Below are positions 20,501 through 61,800 of a stretch of DNA of 64,000 bases, piece by piece (position 1 is the first letter of the stretch; each line of letters begins with the position of its first letter). Location of the stretch: positions 62,001-126,000 of the forward strand of contig NIVC01000659.1 of NCBI GenBank assembly GCA_002269645.1. Direction: 5' to 3'. Both the position numbers and the translations under genes were made by a program. The notes under the pieces were generated by a model. It was not told the origin of the DNA. It was given only the letters and a program-made list of their open reading frames with translations, and did not search any database. This DNA comes from Macrostomum lignano. Lineage: Eukaryota.

Positions 20501-23500
20501 GAAGAGAAGGGGAGAAGAGAGGAGAAGGCAGAAGCGAAGGGAGAAGAGAAAAAGAGAAAAGAAGAGAAGGGAAAAGAAAGGGTAGAAGAGAGGGGATAAA
20601 AGAAGAGAGAAGAGAAGAGGAGAAGAGAAGGGGAGAAGTGAAAGGGGGAAGAGAAGGGGAGAAGAGAAGAAGGGAGAAGAGAAGAGGAGAAGAGAAGAGG
20701 AGAAGAGAAGGGGGAAGAGAAGGGGGAAGAGAAGGGGAAAGAGAAGGGGAGAAGAGAAGAGGAGAAGAGAAGAGAGAAGAGAAAGGGAGAAGAGAAGAGG
20801 AGAAGAGAAGGGGAGAAGCGAAAGGGGGAAGAGAAGGGGAGAAGAGAAGAAGGGAGAAGAGAAGAGGAGAAGAGAAGGGGAGAAGAAAGGGGAAGATGCA
20901 GAGAGAGGGAGGAGTAACTGAGAGAGGTAACTACCTCACTATTACTAATGGTGAAGTAGAATCTACTCAATTCATTGACTCAAAAGGCCTGCACCGGCCG
21001 ATCTGCTATCCGAGTGCGTGGAACGACTCGAGTCGCTGGTCCGGTCCCCGCTGCTGGAGGTTCAGGAGCGCGCGGTCAGCTGCCACAGCCTGCTGCGGGC
21101 GGCGGCGGCTGCTGCGCCAGCCTGCGGAGTGGACTGGCTGGCCGACCTGTTCGAGCGGGACCGCCAACTGGAGCCGGTGGGGCCGGCAGCCCAGCGGCAG
21201 GTGCACCCGCCAGACGGTCTGGACCTCGACGCTTGGATCAACGCTCCGTTGGCTGCGGCGGACTCTCAGAGGAAGAAGAAAAAGAAGACGAAACAAAAGC
21301 AGCAGGCAGCGGCGAATCCGGTGCCCGCGCCGGAGCTACGGGACTCGGCCGATGTGAGTCCTCCGTCTCTCTCCTCTCATGTCTTCTCAATCATCTCTTC
21401 TCTACCTCTCCTCTTCTCTCCCTCTCATCTCTTCTCTCCCTCTCATCTCTTCTCTCCTCTCATCTCTTTTCTCCCTCTCCTCTTCTCTCCCTCTCATCTC
21501 ATCTCTCCCTCTCCTCTTCTCTCCCTCTCATCTCTTCTCTACCTCTCCTCTTCTCTCCCTCTCATCTCTTCTCTCTCATCTCATCTCTTCTCTCCCCCCT
21601 CATCTCTTCTCTCTCATCTCATCTCTCCCTCTCCTCTTCTCTCCTCTCATCTCTTCTCTCTCATCTCATCTCTTCTCTCCCCCCTCATCTCTTCTCTCTC
21701 ATCTCATCTCTCCCTCTCCTCTTCTCTCCCTCTCATCTCTTCTCTCCTCTCATCTCTTCTCTCTCATCTCATCTCTTCTCTCCCCCCTCATCTCTTCTCT
21801 CTCATCTCATCTCTCCCTCTCCTCTTCTCTCCTCTCATCTCTTCTCTCTCATCTCATCTCTTCTCTCCCCCCTCATCTCTTCTCTCTCATCTCATCTCTC
21901 CCTCTCCTCTTCTCTCCCTCTCATCTCTTCTCTCCTCTCATCTCTTCTCTCTCATCTCATCTCTTCTCTCCCCCCTCATCTCTTCTCTCTCATCTCATCT
22001 CTCCCTCTCCTCTTCTCTCCTCTCATCTCTTCTCTCCCCCCTCATCTCTTCTCTCTCATCTCATCTCTCCCTCTCCTCTTCTCTCCCTCTCCTCTTCTCT
22101 CCTCTCATATCTTCTCTCTCTCATCTCATCTCTTCTCTCCCCCTCATCTCTTCTCTCTCATCTCATCTCTCCCTCTCCTCTTCTCTCCCTCTCATCTCTT
22201 CTCTCCTCTCATCTCTTCTCTCTCATCTCATCTCTTCTCTCCCCCCTCATCTCTTCTCTCTCATCTCATCTCTCCCTCTCCTCTTCTCTCCCTCTCATCT
22301 CTTCTCTACCTCTCCTCTTCTCTCCCTCTCATCTCTTCTCTCCTCTCATCTTCTCTCCCTCTTCTCTCCCTCTCCTCTTCTCTCCTCTCATCTCTTCTCT
22401 CTCATCTCATCACTTCTCTCCCCCCTCATCTCTTCTTTCCTCTCCTCTTCTCTCCCTCTCATCTCTTCTCTCCTCTCATCTTCTCTCCCTCTCCTCTTCT
22501 CTACCCCTCATCTCTTCTCTCCCTTTCCTCTTCTCTACCTCTCCTCTTCTCCCTCTTATCTCTTCTCTCTCATCTCTTCTCTCCCCTCTCATCTCTTTTG
22601 TCCCTCTCATCTCTTCTCTCCCTTTTCATCTCTTGTCTCTCCCAGCTTAGCTGCATAGTTCGAATTCCCAACATAATTCAGCGTTCTTGTTAGTTGAGTA
22701 TCATGGCTGCCTTGCATGCAGTTTCTCGAGTAAACTGTGTGCTATTTTCACTCGCTGCTCTTACCGGCAATTATTAATTTATGCGGACATTAAATACTAT
22801 CCTCGGAAACTGGACTCTGTGATAGATATTTATATTCTATCAGCCCAAAGGAAGTTCAACTCGAAAGCAGAAATGTCTCAAACTCAGGCTGTCTCTCTGT
22901 GGCTCGAGTGTATTCTGCCGAAGACCATAAAGCGTGCAATATCGCGTGACAAACGCTGCAATTTCCTGAGGACTATTTTTTAGTCTGAAGCACTGCTCTT
23001 TTGATCCTGGATTGGCTGCGTCTGTCTGATATCACAGAGGCAAAATATCTTTACTGTATTCTCCTGGTGGCTCCGGCAGCAGAGACATGGAAGGAAAGGA
23101 GCAGCTGGGGTGACTCACACAGATTGGGTGACAGCTGGGGTGACTCACACAGATTGGGTGACAGCTTGGGTGACTCACACTGATGGGGTGACAGCTGGGG
23201 TGACTCACACAGATGGGGTGACAGCTTGGGTGACTCACACAGATGGGGTGACAGCTTGGGTGACTCACACAGATGGGGTGACAGCTGGGGTGACTCACAC
23301 AGATTGGGTGACAGCTGGGGTGACTCACACAGATGGGGTGATAGCTGGGGTGACTCACACAGATGGGGTGACAGCTGGGGTGACTCACACAGATTGGGTG
23401 ACAGCTGGGTTGACTCACACAGATGGTGTGACAGCTGGGGTGACTCACACAGATGGGGTGACAGCTGGGGTGACTCGCACAGATTGGGTGACAGCTGGGG

Positions 23501-26500
23501 TGACTCACACAGATGGGGTGACAGCTGGGGTGACTCGCACAGATTGGGTGACAGCTGGGTTGACTCACACAGATGGGGTGACAGCTGGGGTGACTCACAC
23601 AGATTGGGTGACAGCTGGGGTGACTCACACAGATGGGGTGACAGCTGGGGTGACTCAAACATGATTTCGATTCGCTGAAATCAATTCACTCAGTAAATCA
23701 AGTTAAGAATTAATGTTGAATGTGCACTGCACATTGCTCTTTACAGCAGCAGCAGCAGCAGCAGCAGGTGTGTCAGTCGGGCAAGGAGCAGAACCCGCAC
23801 TACCTGAAGAGTCCAGCTGACCAATCCAACACATCGGATGCGGTAGACTCTGCAAACGCGCAACTGTCGGTGGACCAGCAACTGCTCAGGGGCTTAGCCA
23901 GATCTGATTACTATTTGATGCAGCACCGGAGGCTGGCCGAGCAGTCGGTCGGTAGGAGAAGCAAATCCGGGTCGAAGAAGCTGCGCCAACCGCCGCCACC
24001 TGTAGAGGCTGGGGTCGGCGATTGCGAGGACTTCGGAGAGGAGTCGGACGAGCTGTTCTCTGCCGCTGTGGTCAGTGACGACATTGTGTGCCCGCATTTC
24101 TTTGTACTCCAGCCTTGGGTCACAGTTCTGGTGATGCATTGGTCACAGTTCTGGTGATGCATTGGTCACAGTTCTTTTGATGCATTGGTCACAGTTCTGG
24201 TGATGCATTGGTCACAGTTCTTTTGATGCATTGGTCACAGTTCTGGTGATGCATTGGTCACAGTTCTGGTGATGCATTGGTCACAGTTCTGTTCATGCAT
24301 TGGTCACAGTTCTTGTGATGCATTGGTCACAGTTCTTGTGATGCATTGGTCACAGTTCTGGTGATGCATTGGTCACAGTTCTGTTCATGCATTGGTCACA
24401 GTTCTTGTGATGCATTGGTCACAGTTCTTGTGATGCATTGGTCACAGTTCTGGTGATGGTGATACATTGGTTACAGTTCTGGTGATGCATTGGTCACAGT
24501 TCTGGTGATGCATTGGTCACAGTTCTGGTGATGGTGATACATTGGTTACAGTTCTGGTGATGCATTGGTCACAGTTCTGGTGATGCATTGGTCACAGTTC
24601 TGTTCATGCATTGGTCACAGTTCATATCACTCTAATTGGTCACAGTTCTGGTGATTGGTCACAGTTCTGGTGATTGGTCACAGTCACAGTTCTGTTCATG
24701 CATTGGTCACAGTTCATGTCACAACACATTGGTCACAGTTCATGTCACACACATTGGTCACAGTTCATGTCACTCTAATTGGTCACAGTTCATGTCACAC
24801 ACATTGGTCACAGTTCATGTTACACTATAATTGGTCACAGTTCATGTCACACACATTGGTCACAGTTCATGTCACTCTAATTGGTCACAGTTCATGTCAC
24901 ACACATTGGTCACAGTTCATATCACTCTAATTGGTCACAGTTTATGTCACACACATTGGTCACAGTTCATGTCACTCTAATTGGTCACAGTTCATGTCAC
25001 ACACATTGGTCACAGTTCATATCACTCTAATTGGTCACAGTTTATGTCACACACATTGGTCACAGTTCATGTTACACTATAATTGGTCACAGTTCATGTC
25101 ACTCTAATTGGTCACAGTTCATGTCACACACATTGGTCACAGTTCATGTTACACTATAATTGGTCACAGTTCATGTCACACACATTGGTCACAGTTCATG
25201 TCACTCTAATTGGTCACAGTTCATGTCACACACATTGGTCACAGTTCATATCACTCTAATTGGTCACAGTTTATGTCACACACATTGGTCACAGTTCATG
25301 TCACTCTAATTGGTCACAGTTCATGTCACACACATTGGTCACAGTTCATATCACTCTAATTGGTCACAGTTTATGTCACACACATTGGTCACAGTTCATG
25401 TCACACTATAATTGGTCACAGGTGTCCACCGCGCTTGATTCACCGGAAGTAGCTGGCGTTTCTATGAAAGACAACGCCAATTCGCTTTTAAAAGAAAAGC
25501 AAAAGAAGAAGCAGAAGAAGGCAAAGCGCGAGTCAGTGAGCTCCTCGGTCGGAGACTACAAAAGCTTGCCAAACTCAAAGCTCAATAATTCGAAGGCGAA
25601 GTCGGTTAATCTGACCGAATACCTCACCGTGAGCAGCCTCTCTCCCGGCTGCGTGGAGCAGTCCGACCTGACAGCTAAACTGGAACTGGCTTGGCCAACT
25701 GATGCTGAGCAGAGGCTGCTGCATCTGAGACTGCGGGCTCCGGCTCGGCTATCAGTGGTGTCGGCGCACCTGCTCACTCTCGCTGCTCAAGAGCCGGCAG
25801 ACACGCCTGTACACTTTCCTGGGTGCCCGCTGGCTCCTGGACAATGCACCGCTTCCGTCTGCGTGCCAGTGAGTCTGTGGGGCATCGAGATTGTTTTCCA
25901 GATTTCTAATTCAGTTGTCCCAGTCTGTAGAGTCAGTTGTGCCAGTCTGTAGAGTCAGTTGTGCCAGTCTGTAGAGTCTGTTGTCCCAGTCTGTAGAGTC
26001 TGTTGTGCCAGTCTGTAGAGTCTGTTGTGCCAGTCTGTAGAGTCAGTTGTGCCAGTCTGTAGAGTCTGTTGTGCCAGTCTGTAGAGTCTGTTGTCCCAGT
26101 CTGTAGAGTCTGTTGTGCCAGTCTGTAGAGTCTGTTGTCCCAGTCTGTAGAGTCTGTTGTGCCAGTCTGTAGAGTCTGTTGTGCCAGTCTGTAGAGTCTG
26201 TTGTGCCAGTCTGTAGAGTCAGTTGTGCCAGTCTGTAGAGTCTGTTGTCCCAGTCTGTAGAGTCAGTTGTGCCAGTCTGTAGAGTCAGTTGTGCCAGTCT
26301 GTAGAGTCAGTTGTGCCAGTCTGTAGAGTCAGTTGTGCCAGTCTGTAGAGTCTGTTGTGCCAGTCTGTAGAGTCTGTTGTCCCAGTCTGTAGAGTCAGTT
26401 GTGCCAGTCTGTAGAGTCAGTTGTGCCAGTCTGTAGAGTCAGTTGTGCCAGTCTGTAGAGTCAGTTGTGCCAGTCTGTAGAGTCAGTTGTGCCAGTCTGT

Positions 26501-29544: not shown

Positions 29545-30490
29545 CAGCTGTCACCCCATTTGTGTGGGTCACCCAAGCTGTCACCCCATCTGTGTGAGTC
29601 ACCCCAGCTGTCACCCAATCTGTGTGAGTCACCCCAGCTGTCACCCCATCTGTGTGAGTCAACCCAGCTGTCACCCAATCTGTGCGAGTCACCCCAGCTG
29701 TCACCCCATCTGTGTGAGTCACCCCAGCTGTCACCCCATCTGTGTGAGTCACCCAAGCTGTCACCCAATCTGTGTGAGTCACCCCAGCTGTCACCCAATC
29801 TGTGCGAGTCACCCCAGCTGTCACCCCATCTGTGCGAGTCACCCCAGCTGTCACCCCATCTGTGTGAGTCACCCCAGCTGTCACCCCATCTGTGTGAGTC
29901 ACCCCAGCTGTCACCCAATCTGTGCGAGTCACCCCAGCTGTCACCCAATCTGTGCGAGTCACCCCAGCTGTCACCCGATCTGTGCGAGTCACCCCAGCTG
30001 TCACCTTATCTGTGAGTCACCCCATCTGAGTCACCCCAGGTGCCACCCTATCTGTGTGAGTCACCCCAGCTGTCACCCCATCTGTGCGAGTCACCCCAGC
30101 TGTCACCCCATCTGTGTGAGTCACCCCAGCTGTCACCTTATCTGTGAGTCACCCCATCTGAGTCACCCCAGGTGCCACCCAATCTGTGTGAGTCACCCCA
30201 GCTAACTATCTATGAGTGACCCCTGCTGTCACCCCATCTGTGAGTCACCCCATCTGTGAGTCACCCCATCTGTGAGTCACCCCATCTGTGAGTCACCCCA
30301 TCTGTGAGTCACCCCATCTGTGAGTCACCCCATCTGTGAGTCACCCCATCTGTGAGTCACCCCATCTGTGAGTCACCCCATCTGTGAGTCACCCCATCTG
30401 TGAGTCACCCCATCTGTGAGTCACCCCATCTGTGAGTCACCCTATCTGTGAGTCACCCCATCTGTGAGTCACCCCATCTGTGAGTCACTC
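29545..30490. repeat. 30-bp minisatellite (inverse of 23101-23657) grading into an 18-bp derivative (CCCATCTGTGAGTCAC-type)
   Basis: Visible tandem array. Confidence 0.93.
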
Positions 30491-49895: not shown

Positions 49896-52800
49896 TCAGC
49901 TGGGCAGGTCCTGATGCTTGATTGCCCACCTGGGAGCGTCGGCTGGCACGGTCCGGTTGCTATAGTGACCGGGCACTCGGACGCAGCGCTGCAGACTGGA
50001 GGCGCGCAACTTCTGCGTGGCAACCCGACGCTGATAAGTCTCGTCCAGGTGCTGCTTCATCTGAGAGACCGTCTCAGACTCCCACACAAGAGAGCGGATT
50101 CGCAGCGCACTGCCGCCGCCGCTGCCGGCCTCGGTGCAGTCAGCGGCATCAGTTGTCTCCTCATCAGAGGAGGTGAACTCGCGGGTGAGCACAGTCTGAT
50201 ATTTGGACATGTCGTCGGAGCTCAGCTCCGGCAACAGGCGTTCGAAAGCTTTCTGCCGACGGGACAACTTCTGTAGGCGTTGAATCCGTGGGGTTTGTTG
50301 AGCCAAATTGTTAACACATTAAACTAATATTGCTTTTGTCAGCCTAACTGAGAACAAAGCCATCCAAAGTGAGAATCCTGCCTACGCTGACTGCGAAGGG
50401 CCTGGCTGCGTGCAGCCTTAGTCTATGGGCCATAGACAATAAAGGACAAGCAAAGTGATAAAAAGCCATCCAATGTGAGAATCGATTGGTCTATGCGTCG
50501 TATTCTTTTATTTTTATACCTTTTTCTGAGCTTCTGAGCCATATGACTAGCCAATCCTAGCTTATCCTTTATAGTCTATGGCTCATAGACTAGGCTGGAC
50601 GCAGCTAGGCCCTTCGTATTCAGCGTAGGCAGGATTCTCACATTGGATGGCTTTTTATCACTTTGCTTATCCTTTAAAGTCTATGGCCCATAGACTAAGG
50701 CTGCACGCAGCCAGGCCCTTCGCAGTCAGCGTAGGCAGGATTCTCACTTTGGATGGCTTTATTCTCAGTTAGGCTGACAAAACCAATACTGGATTAATAA
50801 GGTTCAGTAGTAAGGGGAAAATTATTGATGCAGTCGTAATGTACATTAGCCAGCTTCACTCAGAATGTACATGGCCTAATTTAGCTAAAGGCAGGGGTTG
50901 TGTGCACCCTGGCGCACTTTAAGCGACATTGTCACACAACCGGCGAGAGGCATTGCTGTCTATTCCACCGACTCCCCTGAGCAGGCAGGCAAGCGCTCGG
51001 ATACGTACGCAGGCACACACTCACACAGGAGTGTACAGCGGCCGACTTTATATTTATCGTTAGGCATGTGTTATACTTGTGGTTTTCTCGGGGTGGCCTG
51101 GTAGGTCTTTGAATCCCACCGCTGCCACCAGTGAAATAGAATGGTTTTTCTCGGGGTGGCCTGGTAGGTCTTTGAATCCTACCGCTGCCACCAGTGTTGT
51201 ACCTGCGGTTGTCCTGCTGTACAGCGCAGTGACTTGGGCTCTCCGTCTTCTCACTCGGAAGCCTTCTTAACTCTCTCAGTAGCGTAGGTAGTGCTGCCAC
51301 CAGTTCCTTCAGGTCTCGGCCTTCGATGAGGTGAGCTTCCCGTCGGAACGAAATAAACAAGTCAACGAACTCAGCACAGCGTGCAGATTTGCAGATTAAT
51401 GAACAAGGCGTCCTGATCAGCAGATCCCCGCCGGGCTCAGGGGTGGCTGGGAAGGCAGTGTTAGCCTCCCTTAGGCTTGGGCTTTAGTGGGGTCTCAGTC
51501 AGACCAGTACAAACGGATTCAGTACGCAAAGGGCACTTAGTTAGACACTGACGCACACGGGATCTTAGTGAATTCTCCGCGGATAAGAAGCCATTCCTTG
51601 ACGGAAACAAGGGGAGAGGGGTCCTATTTATAGCCGGGAAACACCCACGCACAAGACCTCGTGACTTGTTCTATTTTTAGAACTGACGTCACTTGAGATC
51701 TCGAGGCAGGGTCTCAGTGCGCGCAAGACCTCGTGACTCGTTCTATTTTTAGAACTGACGTCACTTGAGGTCTCCGGCCAGAGTACACGCGGCTGTGACT
51801 CAGTTGCTATTTTTAGCAACATGAGTCACTCCTCTCCTTAGAGAAGGGAGGGTTCCGAAAGCACGTGATTCTCCCGGTAAACAGGGCCAACGAGTGCAGT
51901 AAACATGTTTACTGCACTTTAGGACTCGAAGAACGCAGAGTCTGTCATGTGACTTGCTCACATGACAGAGGAAAACGGGACGGGAACGAAACAGAGACAG
52001 CCCACAGCAGAGAAGCTGAGGGCTGAGAACAGAGACGCAGAAGGGCAGAACAGGCCAAGGGCAGCAACAGACGGGCCAAGGGGGGTGGGAAGCTGACCAG
52101 CGGCAGACAGCAACCCAGGGCGAGGGCGAGGGAGACTGCTGACAAAGTGGGACGCCTAACATCAACTAGCGGATCACTACACTCTCCCCGTTCAAATGAA
52201 GAGGCGGAGTGAAAGCGAAGCGCGCTTTATTTAATAAACAAAATAGTGATTTTACTAAATAAAATTATTACAAATGCCTGGCAAAAGGATGGCAGTGTCA
52301 CAAGGCATGCAAATTATTACACGGCTGGGCCAAGGTCAGGATTGTGACCCAAAATGGCGAAGCACCAATAGCACCGGTGGGTTGCCCACGCCAAGGCAGA
52401 GCCCTAGAAAATCATAAAATCGGAGGGGCTGGCAAGTCCCTCGGGCGTACGCAGAATCAGGACCTCAGTCCAACAGCGGTTTGGGGGCGCCGGCCCGGAA
52501 AATGGGCGCCTAAATATACGGGATACCATAGACAGCCGGCAGAGCCCGTCACTGGGGAGAAGGGGGATGCAGAACTGCATCAGAGCAACAGCTCACGGGA
52601 AGATAAAAGAGTACGCATTGCGGGGGCGCTGGCCTGCTATTGAGGCGCCACATAAAGTAGAGCAGGGAAAAATCAGAGGGTGCCTGTCAGCACCAAGTCC
52701 ACAGAGTCAGAGTTAATCGCTGCGTTGGGTTGATCGGTGCACGCAGATGCGGGCAGTGCGACTAACATACGTCTTGGCCCTAGGATTAATAATTAGCCTC

Positions 52801-55800
52801 TCAGGCTGCCTACGATTCCTAGCCGGCCTACCGACATCTACAGACCCTAATGACGCTTCCACCGGAGTGGTGCATAACGACGGCCCAGGGGTCTGGACCA
52901 CAGAAAAAGCAGCACTGGGAGCGGGAGCAGAAACGGGCGGAAAAGAAACAGCAGGCATAGACGCATCAAGAACAGGCTTATGCAGATGACATTCACCATA
53001 CGGCACTGGCTCACGCCGAAGTGCACTTGCCTGGTTCGCTGGTGTCGTGACCGGTCCACCTCCTGGCTGCACCTCCGGGATCGCCAAAGGCCGGAAGTGC
53101 CATCGGAAGGCCGGCCTTGCGTCGTAGCCGTCATCATCGTCATCGTCGGGGTCGTCCTGGTCGTCCTCGGGATTGGCGTCAGGGTCGCGGGTCCTGCGCC
53201 GTCGGGGACGTCGGGCGGCCGCCGGCGTTTCTTCGGTTTGTCGACTTCAGGGTCCGAAGTTCTCGTGTAGTCAGCGTCAGGCACGAGCAGAAGGTTCCGG
53301 CGATGGACGACTAGTTCGTCTCGTCTGGCTCTCGGGTTGGGCAGTCTCCGTCGAATCTTGTAGACGACCTCGCCCTTGGGCTCGACGACTTCGTATAGGG
53401 CTTTGCGAGGTCGATGAAACTTCGCCGCCTCATCCGGTTCGAGTACCGGGTTGTTGAGGAAGACCAGATCACCGGGTTGAAGCTTCTTGGCGGCGGGCAG
53501 GTTCGAATAGTGCTCGTCTCGCAGTTGCTGGTGCAGATGCAGGCGCTCCTTGGCTAGCTCAGTCGCCTCGTCCAGGCGACGTTGGAAGTCCTTGACGTAG
53601 TCGGGCAGGTCGGCGTACTCGGGCAGCTTCTTCAGCGCGTTGTCGATCGGGAGTCGGAAATCACGGCCGAACACCAGGTAGTGAGGCGTGAAGCCGGTCA
53701 CCGGGTGCACGCTGGAGCGGAGAGCCATCAGACAGGCCGGGAGGAAGGTGTCCCAGTCGTTGTGGTTGCGCTCGAGCAGACAGGTGAGGACACTCTTCAG
53801 CTGTTTGTTGAGGTTCTCGACTTGTCCGTTGGAAGCTGGATTGTACGGTGTTGTTGTCGTATGCCGAATGCCAAACAGGTCGCAGAACTTCTTGAAGGCT
53901 GAGCCGGTGAAGTTGGTGCCTTGGTCAGTGTGGATCCAGCATGGTACACCGAACTCGGGGATGAAGCGCTCCTGCAGAAGCTTGATGACTGTTTTGGCTT
54001 TCTGGTTTCTCATCGGGTAGGCGAATGGATACTTCGACGTCGCATCGCACAAGGTCAGGATGTAGCGGTTGCCGCTCTTGCTCTTCTGCGCGATTGGTCC
54101 TACTACATCACAGTGGATTCTACCCAGAACTTCGCAAACTGGGAAGCTCTGGACCGGAACTCTCTCTCGCCGTCGCGATTTACTTTCAAGGCAAGTGCGG
54201 CACTTACTGATGAAGGTCTTGGTAGCACGGGCTAATCCGGGTCTCCAGAACCGTTCTCGTAGCCGCAGTAACGTCTTCGTCTCGCCGAGGTGTCCACACA
54301 GTGACGAACTGTGGAGCTCCTGGAGCACCTGGGCGTCAAGGGCCTCAGGCAGAACAACCTTTGGCGGCTGCTGGCCATCGGACAGGTCAATCAGCAGCAG
54401 GCCGTTGTCCTCCTGCAGGTTCTCGTAGTATCCGAGCAGGTTCCGCTGCTCCTTCGTCAGGCGCAACCGGGCGTCGAACTCAGGCTTCGGGGCTTCGTTC
54501 TTGACCAGGTTGAGCACGTAGCTGATGGCTCGGTCAGCGCGCTGGGCTTCAACGAACTGTTGGCGAGTCATCGGCAGCTTCAGAATATCAGTGAGCACAG
54601 CGCGGCATGGCTGAGGGGTCCGGATTCCCGCAGTCTCCGCTTTAATGGCTCCAGGTCGATCACACGGCACCGTCTTGTCGGCGTCAGGATTAGGTCGCTC
54701 CGAGGGACTTTGTCTCGCAACGTCGGCGTACGTCCGTTGATCTCGTTTCGAAGTTCTCATCGTCGCTCTATTGACAGAAAAATCCGCAGATGGAGCAGTG
54801 CACATGCCTCCACTGCCTAGCCCAGGCGACTCTTGGCTGTAGGGCGGGACGCAACACGTGAAGCACGCCTCGTCACTGGCAGCCGTAGCCGTCGGCTCAG
54901 TCGTCGTCAAATCTGGGTGAGTCTTCTCCTGCACTGGGCGGTGTCGCAAAGGGGGAATCGACTTTCCGCACAGGCGATGAGCAGCTGTCTGTCGGCCCGG
55001 GGGACAGAGCTTCGACCTTGCAGCTGGCGCGAGATTCTGGCCCCTGTCAACATGGCGAGAGATCTCAGCGAAAGGCTCAGAAGGGTTGTACTTAGGTTGC
55101 TGTCCTGGAGTTGCGTTGCGGGCCGTCATCAGAAGGGCTGCTGGCGCGGTGGCCTTTGAATCTTGGTCCGTGGGCATCTCCAGATTCCGAGACCGGAAGT
55201 CTTGGGCGTCGTCAAGGAGGTCTGCTTCGGCGGTGGCCTCTAGGACTTCGTCCAGGTTGGTCTCCAGGTAACGGCAGTCGGCGTGGGCATCGCTGCAGAG
55301 GGCTGTCGTCACAGTGGCCTCTGGGTTGTCGTCCAGGCCGATCTCCAGGCGTTGACTGCAGCGGTGGGCGTCGTGCTGGAAGGCTGCTGGCGCGGTGGCT
55401 TCCAGGTCTTCGTCCAGGTCAGTCTCGGCCTCCAGGTAGCGAGGGTGGACAGTCTTCGGGAGGGCTGCTCTGGCAGTGGCCTCGGGTGTCGCGTCCAAGT
55501 CCGTCTCCAGGAAACGTCGGCGCTCAGTCTTGGGGCTGCCGCCGGCACCGGGTTGGGCTGTAGAACCAGGTTGCTTTAGCAGTCGGCCATGCTCGAAGTT
55601 GATCGGTGGTGTCTCCGGTCTTCTTGACAGGGCGTCGGCGTTGGCGTGGTCCTTGCCTTTGCGGTGGTTGAGCTGGAAGCGGAACTCGCTAAGGCGTTCG
55701 ATCCAGCGGCCTAAAATACCTGTGGCCTGAGTTTGGTTCAGTAACCACAGTAAGGCCCGATGATCGGATCGAACTTCAAACTTCTTGCCGATTAAGTAAT

Positions 55801-58800
55801 GACGGAAATGTCGCATAGCGTCCAAAATTGCAAGCAGCTCTTTCTTCGTGACCGTGTAGCGCTTCTCAGGATCGCGAAGTTTACGGCTAAAGAATGCAAT
55901 TGGTCGTTCGACGCCGTCGGATTGCAGTTGTCCAAGGCAAGCGCCTATTCGAATATCAGAGGCATCCGTGTCGAGGACAAACTTCACTGCAGAATCAGAA
56001 TTAAACTCAGGCAGAGCGAGAACTTCAGTAGAACACAGTTTCTTCTTCAGAGTGTCGAACGCGTGCTGATGCTCGGGAGTCCAGTGCTGCCGCAAGCTGC
56101 CAATGTCCTTTCGCGTCAGGGCATGCAGCGGCGCAGCCACTCCAGCGTAGCCGTCGACAAACTTGTGGTAGTAATTGGCGAGGCCTAGGAATTGTCTCAG
56201 TTGAGTAACGGACTGTGGCACGGGCCAATCACGGATCTGCGCAATCTTGTCCTCACAGGTCTTCAGGCCGTCGGGAGTCACGACGTGACCTAAATAATGC
56301 AGCTCCTTGAGGAACAAATGACATTTCTTCGGTTTCACTTTGAGGTTGGCTGCGATGATGCGCTGGAGTACAGTTCGCAGGTTATCCAGCTGTTCCTCGA
56401 AAGTCACTGAGTACACAACGATGTCGTCCATATAGCCAAGCGCAGTCTTTGGCGTCAGGCCGTCCAGGAGCTTATTGATGCAACGCTGAAAGCTGCCGGG
56501 ACTATCGTGGAGACCCATCGGTAGAACGTTAAAACAGAATTGGCCGCGGTCGATTACTGAGAATGCCGTCAAGTGCTGGTCGCAGTCACGCAGCGGGATC
56601 TGCCAGAATCCTTGAGCAAGGTCCAAGCTGGAATACCACTGAGCACCACGAAGCTTTGCGAAGGTTTCCTGGATGTGCGGCAGTGGATACGGGTGATACA
56701 CACACCTGTCGTTGAGAGCTCTGAAGTCGTGGACTAGTCGGATGTTGCCGTCCTTCTTAGGCACGATGAGCATTGGCGAATTGTAGCTCGAGTAGGCAGG
56801 GCGAATGATGTGCTTCGCCAGCATCTCGTCTAGCAGGGCGTCGAGCTTGTCCTTCAGATGAGGCGGAATTCGGCGCGGTGGAAGCGCAACTGGTGTCCGG
56901 TCCTTCAAGATGATCTCGTGGGTCACCAGGTGAGTCAGGCCGGCGTCTAGCGAGTGCTTGGAGAAGGCCGCTTGACATTCGACTAGTAGATCTCGCACTC
57001 TTAGATGTTGTTCTTTGGACAATTCGCTGTTGATCTCGACTTCATCTAGCCATGCTGTGCTGGACTCTTCAGAGTTCTTCGGGAGGTGTCGTACTTCAGG
57101 TTCGGGCGTCTCACTCAGGTACATCAGGTCGGCAGTTCGGAGTGGCGTCGCAACACCAACACGGATACCGGCTTGCAGGAACACCTCGCTGTCGGCGGTG
57201 TTGACGACCTCAATGTAGCCGCGACCTTCAGGCATCGTCATCAGAGCAGGCGCTGCTTCCAGAGCGTTGCAGCTGGGATGCAGCCTCGACTTAACCAGCT
57301 CGACAATTGATGGCGATCCTCGATTCTCAGGGTGGCCGTCATCCAGTCTGACGGCAAGCAACGCTGAACTTCTAGGCGGCAGGGTGCACTTCTCGGAGGT
57401 GTACACTCGGCAGTTCTGAAGCTCACGACGCGAATAGCGAACGGGGATGCACGCGCCGTTGTTAAACTTCAACATTCCTTGAGCGGAGTCCAAGTTCTGG
57501 CAGTGCTCTCGCATAAACGATACGCCAAGCAAGTTTTCACAATCGGAGACCGTGACGAGGAATTCGGTGTCCGCGACGACATCACCGAACTCCACCGGAA
57601 TGGTCACCTTACAAGCAAGTGGGAGCTGCGTCCCATCATACATAGTTACGCAATCGGGAATAGCATGCGATATAATACAACGAGGCATCCGACGTCTAAT
57701 AGCGGCCCAGGTTGACGAACCAAGAAAGTTTTTCCGGCTGCCGCTGTCAAGCAAGAAAGGGACCTCTCGACTCGCAACTCGACCTGTGACGTACGGATCG
57801 GCCTCACGCGCATGGATTTTTTGATTCGGGGAGGTGTCCACGAAACCTCCGCACTCCGCGTCACTTACTGACGAGTGACTGTCGGACTGGGCATTGGCGC
57901 CTGCACAGCCGACATTCTCTTCTTCTGGTGACCTCTCGGAGTCTGCCAAGTAGCCTGGGCTTGGACCTCGCGGAGGGCGGTGCCGTTGTCGCTCTCCGCC
58001 TGGCCGTTTCCCTGGTTCTGGCGCATCGGGCACTGGGCACTGCGGTGACCGGGCTGTCCGCAGCCGTAGCAGATTGTAGTCTTCGCCGGCGGGCTGTTCT
58101 TCTGCTGTTGGTCACGCTGCACCAGGTGATCAAGCAGTCGCTGCTGCTTCTCGATCAAGTCGGTTAGAGTTAGCAAGGCTTGGGCGGTGACGTCGGGCTT
58201 CGGGTCGCCGTCCTGCTCCCCGTCCAACATCCTAACCGGGGGTTGAGCGGTTCGCTGCGCCAATTCTTTGGCGCCTTCTAGTCGTCGTAGTTCTCGAATC
58301 GCAGCAAGAAGATTATTTGGGCGGACCCAGTACAGCCGTTCACGCAGGTCTGGAGTCGTTCGGATACCAGCAAGAAATTGATCAGCAATCTCCTTCTCGC
58401 GGTCTTCAGGGTGCATTCGAGGATACGCACGTTCACCAAGAGTTCTCAGGGCGTCAGCAAACTCTTCTGCTGACTCATTCTTGCATTGTTGACGACGCCT
58501 AAACAGCTCTCTATACTCATCAGCACCACCATGACGGGCAAATCGCTCAATCAGACGCTGCTTGACCTCCTCGTAGCTGGCGAAACGCGGGAGATTCATA
58601 CTAAGCAAAGAAGGATATGCAGTAGCCAAATCAAGACTCGCAATGAGGTGTTGCTTCATCTCGAACGGGTCGACGATGCGCTCCATCTCGCAACGCTGCT
58701 CGAACGCGGCAAGCCAGACATGAATGTCCTGACTTGGAGTATACTTCACAATCTTAACTTGTTTACTCACAGGCCGCTCCATCTGCTGCTGCAGAGCTGC

Positions 58801-61800
58801 CATCATGGTCCTCACGTCCTGGTGCGTGATGTTCCGGCCGATGTTGTCCAGGCCTTGCAGAAGCTCGTCTGGCGGGTCGTCGGACACGTCGCTTCTGGCA
58901 CCTCGCCTCGGCGTCGGCTGCTGACCAAAGTCGTTGATCGCTGCTGCTGCTGCGGCGTCCGCTGCCGCAGGCCTCGAACTGCTGATGTGCTGATCCAGCC
59001 GGCTGCTGCACCGGCTCTCGTCTCGTTCGTTGAACATGTTGAACTCGTAGTAGTTACTGGCCGATGTCGTTCTCGAAAGAGCGGTTGGCTTGGGTGTGTC
59101 GTAGTCGGATCCCACCGCTGCCACCAGTGTTATACTTGTGGTTTTCTCGGGGTGGCCTGGTAGGTCTTTGAATCCCACCGCTGCCACCAGTGAAATAGAA
59201 TGGTTTTTCTCGGGGTGGCCTGGTAGGTCTTTGAATCCTACCGCTGCCACCAGTGTTGTACCTGCGGTTGTCCTGCTGTACAGCGCAGTGACTTGGGCTC
59301 TCCGTCTTCTCACTCGGAAGCCTTCTTAACTCTCTCAGTAGCGTAGGTAGTGCTGCCACCAGTTCCTTCAGGTCTCGGCCTTCGATGAGGTGAGCTTCCC
59401 GTCGGAACGAAATAAACAAGTCAACGAACTCAGCACAGCGTGCAGATTTGCAGATTAATGAACAAGGCGTCCTGATCAGCAGATCCCCGCCGGGCTCAGG
59501 GGTGGCTGGGAAGGCAGTGTTAGCCTCCCTTAGGCTTGGGCTTTAGTGGGGTCTCAGTCAGACCAGTACAAACGGATTCAGTACGCAAAGGGCACTTAGT
59601 TAGACACTGACGCACACGGGATCTTAGTGAATTCTCCGCGGATAAGAAGCCATTCCTTGACGGAAACAAGGGGAGAGGGGTCCTATTTATAGCCGGGAAA
59701 CACCCACGCACAAGACCTCGTGACTTGTTCTATTTTTAGAACTGACGTCACTTGAGATCTCGAGGCAGGGTCTCAGTGCGCGCAAGACCTCGTGACTCGT
59801 TCTATTTTTAGAACTGACGTCACTTGAGGTCTCCGGCCAGAGTACACGCGGCTGTGACTCAGTTGCTATTTTTAGCAACATGAGTCACTCCTCTCCTTAG
59901 AGAAGGGAGGGTTCCGAAAGCACGTGATTCTCCCGGTAAACAGGGCCAACGAGTGCAGTAAACATGTTTACTGCACTTTAGGACTCGAAGAACGCAGAGT
60001 CTGTCATGTGACTTGCTCACATGACAGAGGAAAACGGGACGGGAACGAAACAGAGACAGCCCACAGCAGAGAAGCTGAGGGCTGAGAACAGAGACGCAGA
60101 AGGGCAGAACAGGCCAAGGGCAGCAACAGACGGGCCAAGGGGGGTGGGAAGCTGACCAGCGGCAGACAGCAACCCAGGGCGAGGGCGAGGGAGACTGCTG
60201 ACAAAGTGGGACGCCTAACATCAACTAGCGGATCACTACACATGTACACTTCACTGTACTGTACCTTACGGGTTGGCCCTCAAACTGGGTGTTAATTGCA
60301 CGGACAGACCCATAAAACTGAGATTCCAATTTAGCCCCAAATTAATGTGACTGCACTTGGAATCGAGCCTTGGCCGCTGGCACATCAGAACGCCGCGCTG
60401 GACCAGTGGGCTACTCACCGCTTGAACGCGGAAGCACTTTCTCTGCGTGCGCTTCTTAAACTCGTATCGGTACTGTTCGTCTTGGAAGAACGATGCAACA
60501 GCCGCTGATGATGAAACTGAAACAGACATGATCCGCATGTAAATAAAAATATCATTGCATATGCTAAGAAAAAGGCTATTAACTCGTGTTAGTAAAAGTT
60601 TAGAAAACTTTTTCAGGTTGTGTTTTGGCTCCATCTATACAAGCTTCAATATACAAGTAACAGAAACTATAACGAAAATTCTATACGGTACCCAGGCCAA
60701 GAAGCTAGTAGAGTCAATCTAAGGCGTTTTATTGTCTGCGACTCTGCGTCAGAGTCGCATCTGAGACGTGCCAGAGTTGCTGTAGAATCACTGAGTTGCG
60801 TCCAAAGCGCATCTGAGCCACTTTATGAATTAGAATCGCATTTTGCAAATATAACAACTTTTTGTGTCTACTTAAGTCAGTAGAAAGTAAAGCACAAAAA
60901 CAACGACTTTTGGACGACTTTTTTGCGACTATTTTACGATTCCGCAACTCACGTGATGCGCTCGTGACTCAACAGTCGCCTCTACGTCGCATTTGCAGTC
61001 GTTTGAGTCGTTAAAAAGTCTCAAGAGTCTCCCTAAGGTCGCTTGAGTGACAAGTGAATTGTTTGAAATGACTCTTTAGCTTATCAGCTAAACTTTGCCT
61101 GTTCATAAAATTCACGTCATTAGGGAGGAAATTACTGAGATGTTCTTGGGTGAGAGCGCCAATTGCAGATCTCCAGTGCTTCCAGGACAGCTACAGGTAG
61201 GTACACAGGTACAAAAACTAAATTAAGCAGGTCTCACATTTCAACTGTTCAACAGAGACGCCGCTGGATGGACCGAGATTTGTTGACGCGATGTGATTGA
61301 AAATCTTGTCCGTAACAGCCTGATTGACTGGGTCGTTCCATCTGAAGAAATAAATAAACTAAATTTAGAATTGAAAATTTACACAGCCGATAAAGATGAA
61401 AGGATTGTTGGCAACTCACCGCCGACTCAAATCATACAGATGCAGCTGCTTAGCGGAGCTGCACAAAGCTCGATAGGCCTGCTTAATCAGCTGCTTCACC
61501 TGCTCGGTACTCACTGACGCCAGCTCTCCGACATCGCTACCTTCGATACTGTCGGGGCAGCCGTCTCCTTGCCCGGCGGCCATCAATACAACGCAGTCAT
61601 CATTGTCGCCTTCGCCATAATGTTTAGCTTCGTCTGGCAGAACAAATTCCTGGTCGTTACTGTCTGTAATGTCCAAAGACTCAAACTTCGGTCGCTTTGT
61701 ACAAGTAGGAGGTGAGTCTGGGCGTTGACGCTGACTCCGCTGGTTCTTAGTTGATGAAGCATTGAACGATTGACGCTTAGACAGATCCTCCAACTGAGCG

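Follow-up and report, generated by a model that had tools for sequence, protein, structure and literature searches.

How can an LTR end contain three tandem primer-binding sites (PBSs), each preceded by a possible integration end, and does the element choose among them? The question is raised by a retrotransposon of the flatworm Macrostomum lignano in a 64-kb stretch of contig NIVC01000659.1 (the window, 64,000 nucleotides, to which all coordinates refer). The best explanation that we can offer is that the 63-bp unit responsible is a variable-copy cassette, made of a PBS, a loop, an anti-PBS arm and a U5 tail with an att end, which occurs in one Ty3/gypsy clade. The minus strand of the window carries one complete Ty3/gypsy LTR retrotransposon, with these features:

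60241..60244, no strand: target-site duplication (TSD) CATG, 4 bp, 5' side
59128..60240, minus strand: 5' LTR, TG...CA, 1,113 bp, including two extra PBS-att units; identical to the 3' LTR
59686..59691, minus strand: candidate TATAAA box within the LTR, of putative role
59330..59361, minus strand: degenerate fourth PBS relic, a 10-nt core (59361-59352) and a short fold-back
59254..59267, minus strand: att0, the LTR end in unit-less relatives, whose LTRs stop there, adjoining the TSD
59235..59252, minus strand: inner PBS 1, tRNA-Leu, one mismatch to the tRNA, GGTAGGAT, which turns a hairpin G.U pair into A-U
59213..59234, minus strand: unit 1 loop and linker, predicted anti-PBS arm, also complementary to the 5' strand of the tRNA-Leu D arm
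59191..59212, minus strand: unit 1 U5 tail with variable att1
59172..59189, minus strand: inner PBS 2, 18/18 to tRNA-Leu
59150..59171, minus strand: unit 2 loop and predicted anti-PBS linker
59128..59149, minus strand: unit 2 U5 tail with variable att2, the integration end; the 3' LTR stops there beside the TSD
59109..59126, minus strand: outer, functional PBS, 18/18 to tRNA-Leu in the window copy
57865..59037, minus strand: gag ORF with CCHC zinc knuckle, ATG at 59037
52847..58111, minus strand: pol ORF with RT, RNase H and integrase (H2C2 and core), in another frame and overlapping gag
52182..52189, minus strand: polypurine tract (PPT)
51069..52181, minus strand: 3' LTR with both extra units, identical to the 5' LTR over 1,113 bp
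51176..51193, minus strand: inner PBS 1 copy, 3' LTR
51113..51130, minus strand: inner PBS 2 copy, 3' LTR
51065..51068, no strand: TSD CATG, 4 bp, 3' side

The TG...CA LTRs with their TSD, the tRNA PBS, the PPT ahead of the 3' LTR, the gag knuckle and the pol order RT, RNase H, integrase are those of Ty3/gypsy elements, and the identical LTRs and 4-bp TSD mark a young copy. For the protease there is no Pfam match; inspection of the translation by eye shows a DSG motif. No env ORF or domain was found between pol and the 3' LTR (∼ 660 bp) or between gag and pol, which rules out an errantivirus or other env-bearing element. The nearest named proteins are Macrostomum lignano proteins, 59% identical. 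Apart from its LTR-end cassette, which is unusual and mobile, the element is a typical Ty3/gypsy retrotransposon.

A reading of the same DNA from its letters (the sequence-only reading) had described three tandem tRNA-Leu PBSs in 63-bp units, with both extra units in both LTRs, and each coordinate was confirmed. The PBS copies begin at 59252, 59189 and 59126 (spacing 63 and 63 bp), each preceded by a CA end and one C, and their 3' LTR counterparts lie at 51193-51176 and 51130-51113. The two units are alike at 54 of 63 positions; att1 occupies 59204-59191 and att2 59141-59128 on the minus strand. Throughout the 64-kb window the 10-nt PBS core is restricted to the LTRs of the element, and the relic at 59330..59361, which the sequence-only reading had overlooked, is likely an older unit that would since have decayed. 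Contigs of four public runs cover the units. In one of these, an independent run (X9, record 26), short-read contigs read linker-att-PBS-linker through two units; the structure is therefore no assembly artefact.

The PBS complements the 3'-terminal 18 nt of tRNA-Leu(AAG) and tRNA-Leu(TAG) without a mismatch; 12 genes for these tRNAs were located in this genome. In Tf1-type self-priming the PBS matches the element's own 5' end. That mode works without tRNA (PMC5371799, in part) and is ruled out here by the 18/18 match to tRNA-Leu genes.

Unit number varies between copies. Exact searches of the genome gave 439 matches to the LTR start (including sister subfamilies), 63 to the leader behind the working PBS (61 of these loci were retrieved) and 28 to the PPT-LTR junction; the 25-nt unit linker matched 149 times, its reversed control 0 times. 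In an unselected sample, the first 30 LTR starts, 24 were readable to the end, 15 of them with one unit and 9 without. Solo LTRs between matching 4-bp TSDs have 0 (n = 5), 1 (n = 22), 2 (n = 8) or 3 units (n = 1), in a set over all loci that over-represents units, many of the loci having been found through unit searches. All four kinds of end that the sequence-only reading had proposed to look for are thus present with proper TSDs, so that every att segment is usable as an end and unit number is polymorphic. No unit is found at 29 of 49 5' ends, many of which belong to young copies with identical LTRs. After duplicates with the same flanks were dropped, both LTRs could be read in 43 insertions (units in 5'/3' LTR): 24 are 0/0, 11 are 1/1, five are 2/2, two are 1/0 and one, a tandem array without TSD, is 0/1. 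On a tree of 85 LTR bodies, which omits the last 60 columns, 3' LTRs, unresolved ends and eight loci of other families, unit presence changes at least 18 times (mean with shuffled labels, 26). Among 37 LTR pairs within five substitutions of each other, which are not independent, 14 differ in unit number and 19 in att0; att1 differs in nine of 16 near-identical pairs. The genome copies support accretion of units over replication cycles, as had been suggested. Units of this family measure 61–66 or 74 bp (63 in 33 of 68). Homopolymer length differences between copies may include assembly errors.

Such variation bears on the case that had been named as refuting, an inert ancient duplication with the same fixed end everywhere, and disposes of it in that form, unit number being polymorphic between copies. 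An inert old duplication altered only by chromosomal slippage or recombination after insertion would explain why four of 14 unit pairs in tandem are identical. It would also fit C440 (two units 5', one unit 3', 19 LTR differences), which resembles a deletion between PBS repeats and may be one that followed insertion. We consider it very unlikely nonetheless: changes are present in copies with 0–1 LTR substitutions, units turn up in lineages previously without them, and both LTRs usually have the same heterogeneous units. The 1/0 ends would moreover require precise deletion through 4–7 nt of homology, and the young asymmetric copies already largely refute this explanation.

Which PBS, then, sets the LTR end? 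That the outermost PBS primed the window copy is supported by its LTR, which ends at att2 beside the TSD. Of 18 full-length copies with units and a TSD, 16 likewise owe their LTR end to the outermost PBS, which in 10 of these 16 is imperfect while a perfect PBS lies upstream. Across the family the outer PBS is perfect in 12 and imperfect in 37 of 49 5' ends, mostly through a 2-nt insertion, in some cases joined by a G-to-A change; the inner PBS is perfect in 51 of 68 units. Reversion to a perfect outer PBS is spread over the LTR tree, with 10 changes, and other families have different inserted letters at the same position. A search for a variant tRNA matching the imperfect outer PBS gave no exact match, and no tRNA gene fits the imperfect form. 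Twelve near matches of another type proved to be sister-subfamily PBSs (0/12 tRNA genes).

The sequence-only reading had proposed that the element could switch LTR length by primer choice, selecting among three primer sites and thus three LTR ends. All att segments are indeed usable ends, inner sites bind the tRNA well in theory, and in two of the 18 copies, C2478 and C163, the 3' LTR ends at att0 with an intact TSD while one unit is kept at the 5' end. However, the other 16 have all units in both LTRs, their outer site having been used even where imperfect, and the sole two exceptions match unit-less siblings. Over its LTR body and 3 kb of interior, C2478 shows 0 substitutions relative to C73 and C423, which have no unit; C163 differs from unit-less C2457 by two substitutions in 1.5 kb, and by ∼ 60 from a one-unit copy having the same att0. 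Both 1/0 copies have a perfect outer PBS, which is imperfect in their unit-less siblings, and no identical 1/1 sibling was found among the retrieved copies. Their near-identity to unit-less siblings argues for a fresh gain rather than primer choice; on the simplest reading, C2478 and C163 look like first-generation gains at plus-strand transfer. Either of these two sole cases could instead stem from inner-PBS priming in a later generation, so that the genomic proxy for primer choice is at most 2/18. Inner priming would, in addition, leave the daughter RNA unchanged, and nothing heritable would be switched. A primer-choice switch therefore appears improbable to us, and gain of a unit fits the asymmetric copies better.

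Other asymmetric insertions also concern the U5 end. C206 (family C) shows the reverse arrangement, one unit 5' and two units 3', with an intact TSD and seven LTR differences. In C511 and C199 the TSDs are intact, yet the LTRs differ mainly in their last 60–80 nt, which points to an exchange of the U5 end within one insertion, with a second template there.

The two parts of the unit differ in their variability. Diversity (π) of PBS and linker is 0.024 over 68 units (LTR mean 0.15), and the att 14-mer takes 40 distinct forms in the same 68, which bears out the expectation of new 14-nt variants. Only the terminal CA and the TA at −7/−6 are fixed within it. Most variable att sites have two states and combine freely: all four haplotypes occur in 23 of 28 site pairs (mean r2 0.11), compared with 244 of 1,295 close pairs in the LTR body (r2 0.43) and six of 28 in att0 (r2 0.39). 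At −4/−3, AA and TT change together (58:0:0:9), which argues for templated exchange rather than point mutation. Units of one element share slightly more of their att (mean shared suffix 4.7 versus 4.0, p 0.012; pairs sharing at least 8 nt, 9 versus 5.8, p 0.09; related copies are not independent), a weak indication of primer hopping or att exchange between units of the same RNA. The att ends of a single-PBS sister lineage are variable too; units are thus not needed for att variation.

It had further been noted that the frame is open through all units into gag, possibly from an upstream GTG. The units would then encode an N-terminal Gag extension, a reading to which we give hardly any credence. 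The frame is stop-free in the window copy, and among the 13 5' ends with the GTG (59313), 10 have it in frame and stop-free; coding read-through across the family did not stand. The GTG is absent from 36 of 49 5' ends, unit lengths do not keep to 63 bp (see above; 35–94 bp in other families), distances between a U5 anchor and the ATG fall about equally into the three frames (16/17/16), and just eight of 49 5' ends have every PBS copy in the LVA frame. Two of the three unit frames are stop-free by composition, and the open frame in 45 of 49 5' ends, considered as coding evidence, is explained by this lack of stops. A family-wide Gag extension is excluded; the exclusion does not reach down to the level of a lineage.

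A possible reason for the neglect of the inner sites lies in the linker. In the predicted fold, the inner PBS pairs with the next 21 nt in two 6-bp stems. The local hairpin has a mean predicted energy of −17.6 kcal/mol (z −1.9) in 49 distinct inner contexts versus −10.0 kcal/mol (z +0.5) in 32 outer contexts, and the commonest inner-PBS change (seven of 68 units) converts a G.U pair of the stem to A-U. For the units of family G no hairpin is predicted. With opening costs included, the tRNA 3' end is computed to bind inner sites better than outer sites at equilibrium (net −21.9 versus −18.3 kcal/mol). Equilibrium locking by the hairpin was therefore rejected, since computed tRNA binding does not favour the outer PBS, and any hairpin block of inner priming would have to be kinetic.

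The same linker is predicted to pair with tRNA positions 1–26 (z −2.2; leaders +0.3) as well as with the PBS (z −1.8; leaders +1.4), because the D arm of tRNA-Leu resembles its own PBS. It is attached to the inner PBS, not to the PBS in use. Within the unit the PBS is followed by a T-loop complement (4/5) and a D-arm complement, an order that agrees with an origin by read-through of the primer tRNA; self-folding of the product would then require no selection. The claim that tRNA complementarity extends past the usual 18 nt holds for four of five letters in the inner units, but also for three of five after the outer PBS (both counted by eye). The extension is weak, and confounded with the anti-PBS hairpin.

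These features could also belong to an adaptive module, in which a perfect inner PBS with its T-loop and D-arm complement serves an imperfect outer PBS as a dock or loading site for the tRNA, or as a decoy for silencing 3' tRNA fragments. The proposal and the variable cassette are not mutually exclusive. It would make sense of an outer PBS that departs from the tRNA in 37 of 49 5' ends, in several families through 2-nt insertions whose letters differ, and that no tRNA gene matches, beside an inner PBS that is perfect in 51 of 68 units; of the predicted pairing with tRNA positions 1–26; and of the motif AAGA(C/T), which is kept in all families. Mouse endogenous retroviruses favour an imperfect PBS against silencing by tRNA fragments (PMC7472051, in part), which lends it a precedent. 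On the other hand, 29 of 49 5' ends are unit-less, many in young copies with identical LTRs, the sister lineage has an imperfect PBS yet no units, and a folded site makes a poor decoy. We regard an adaptive role as unlikely; unit-less copies being both common and young, a benefit to the element is not required.

Units are not confined to the family of the window element (family A). Families whose RT is 89–97%, 75–78%, 69% and 68% identical to that of the window element have units of 35–94 bp, and units run throughout the one RT clade (68–100% identity) that these families form (support 99/96, in a tree without named reference elements). The LTR bodies of families B and C give no blastn alignment to those of family A, and the linkers of families A and C are identical at 19 of 21 positions; this likeness could reflect conservation by selection instead of transfer. 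In the sister lineage (59%), which uses the same tRNA, a PBS was seen in 14 of 20 loci and a second PBS in none; its PBS is imperfect and units are absent. Elements with 29% identical RT also use the same tRNA, with a single PBS. The exact pattern of tandem tRNA-Leu PBSs gave 0 matches in metagenome and viral contigs, which hold few eukaryotes and are uninformative on spread.

A bolder reading makes the unit a selfish mini-element. Its inner PBS complement, present in minus-strand strong-stop DNA, would capture the plus strand of any co-packaged element using the same tRNA and so spread across families with unalignable LTRs; the hairpin would hide its own PBS, and the shuffling of att ends at single-base scale would be a side-effect. 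We put this forward as a speculation, conceivable but on balance doubtful.

The account that we favour, and hold to be moderately probable, is that of an optional, hairpin-masked cassette. Plus-strand transfer out of register, with a co-packaged partner as donor, would bring it in, outer priming would fix it and deletion would remove it, with att scrambled in the process. The first unit may have arisen when synthesis ran on into the primer tRNA and the copy, made up of its 3' end, T loop and D arm, was rejoined to U5. Predicted folding on its own linker would keep the inner PBS from priming through a kinetic block. Plus-strand strong-stop DNA, which ends in a copy of the PBS, could anneal to the complement of the inner PBS of a unit-bearing partner, and annealing at this inner site would carry one unit into the new 5' end. 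In the next cycle, priming at the outer PBS would copy the unit into both LTRs, and repeated exchange beside the PBS may have scrambled the 14-nt att. Loss is likely to proceed by deletion between unit repeats; such deletion appears to use the GAAAACC stretch common to att0 and the unit tail and would move the unit's att into the place of att0. As best read from the sequences, the cassette would be tolerated, possibly self-spreading, and exchanged between co-packaged RNAs.

The sequence-only reading knew of no description of such an arrangement, and our literature search, which covered openly available papers, likewise found no account of variable att and PBS units inside LTRs. The canonical Ty3/gypsy junction of U5-att and PBS (PMC5371799, in part) is alike in its TG...CA LTRs, tRNA 3'-end PBS at the LTR end, PPT, gag, RT-RNase H-integrase pol and short TSD; the window family differs in having full att and PBS copies inside both LTRs, 0–3 per copy and with differing att. 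Extra tRNA-complementary sequence beyond the priming site is known from Ty1 and Ty3, which have a bipartite PBS not inherited from the tRNA (PMC5371799, in part), and from Drosophila Gypsy, whose second PBS, at the 3' end, is dispensable for cDNA synthesis (PMC1635307, in part); two PBSs are also mentioned in passing in PMC3212995 (in part). As far as these sources extend, such sites are fixed parts of the genome, whereas the flatworm units are optional and tandem, each with a usable att end and an anti-PBS arm. The extra segment of the bipartite PBS is a constant part of all active copies; here 29 of 49 5' ends lack any unit.

Delayed (aberrant) second-strand transfer in HIV-1 leaves tRNA-Lys3 inserts of 7–54 nt (PMC12657518, in part), and the likeness is that read-through of the tRNA past position 58 is left behind the PBS. 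By analogy, such read-through is the likely origin of the first unit. The HIV-1 products in that source are defective deletions; the flatworm product is intact, replicating and spread through a clade. Imperfect PBSs and silencing by tRNA fragments have been described for the mouse elements ETn, MusD and IAP (Cullen and Schorn, PMC7472051, in part), where, as here, the commonest functional PBS mismatches the tRNA; section 4.3 of that paper describes no spare perfect PBS in the LTR, which the flatworm family has. Helenus TRIMs contain a tRNA-like sequence in the LTR and, in animals, a 4-bp TSD (PMC10886601, in part). They share with the window element tRNA-related sequence within the LTR, but are non-autonomous, and their tRNA-like part is without PBS complementarity. 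The flatworm element is autonomous, with gag and pol, and its insert is the PBS itself, which rules out its being a Helenus TRIM.

In models of reverse transcription, and in the annotation and dating of LTRs, the LTR end and the PBS are treated as a single fixed junction. In this flatworm, copies gain, lose and exchange the junction as a module, and the exchange probably extends across families. Two gains are apparently seen in the very generation in which they arose, and a single insertion can have LTRs that differ at the U5 end, so that divergence close to U5 is not necessarily a measure of age. The units serve as a natural record of plus-strand transfer and of co-packaging in the germ line of an animal and indicate the att bases that integrase needs, CA and the TA at −7/−6. 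The coexistence of an imperfect working PBS and hidden perfect PBSs provides a testable pairing for the question of silencing by tRNA fragments.

The unit, a cassette of about 63 bp that joins a tRNA-Leu primer binding site (PBS), a linker and an att end, is present in 13 of the 19 solo LTRs of an unselected sample (L253–L282) versus 20 of 49 full-length 5' ends, a comparison that covers few loci and mixes subfamilies. In one solo LTR (L043, G000:C217; locus ∼ 1290–1500), telomere-like (TTAGGG)2 takes the place of ∼ 50 nt, among them the degenerate PBS relic, the decayed fourth PBS copy; this LTR has also lost the inner PBS of its unit. At L154 (C1903), L160 (C3668), L117 (C2137) and L217–L219 (C255), elements lie in tandem with a shared internal LTR, and as many as four LTRs follow one another.

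The element interior varies in length among copies by up to 1.5 kb. On the minus strand, RNase H and integrase of pol are separated by a long insertion in which LETDLD-like motifs recur (window 55096–55563 region). Other features of the window are as follows.

48301–48891, plus strand: fragment of a mariner-type DDD transposase, recognized by eye
1600–35100: dense mosaic of minisatellite arrays with units of 8–30 bp
23100–23660 and 29545–30014, within this mosaic: 30-bp minisatellite array in inverted orientation

The outer PBS, which is the working primer site behind the LTR end, is mostly imperfect in families A, D, C and G, and perfect revertants are scattered. The defect in these families consists of 2-nt insertions whose letters differ; in the sister lineage of single-PBS relatives (L283–L301) the working PBS is imperfect by another defect.

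Family B (L062–L064) has a 22-nt near-complement of the 5' end of tRNA-Leu(TAG), located ∼ 80 nt 5' of the first PBS. This stretch is a possible second tRNA-binding box, a candidate that would resemble the arrangement in Ty1. Family B ends (L069, L073, L089) further contain remnants of partial PBS copies and a triple unit of 35 bp.

Immediately 3' of the outer PBS, the leader consists of successive repeats with GATTCGA or TGGGATTCGA, both in family C (L214, L233–L239) and in L231 and L309–L319. These motifs are complementary to the tRNA T loop and the PBS end, and suggest that stutter at the PBS occurs on the downstream side too.
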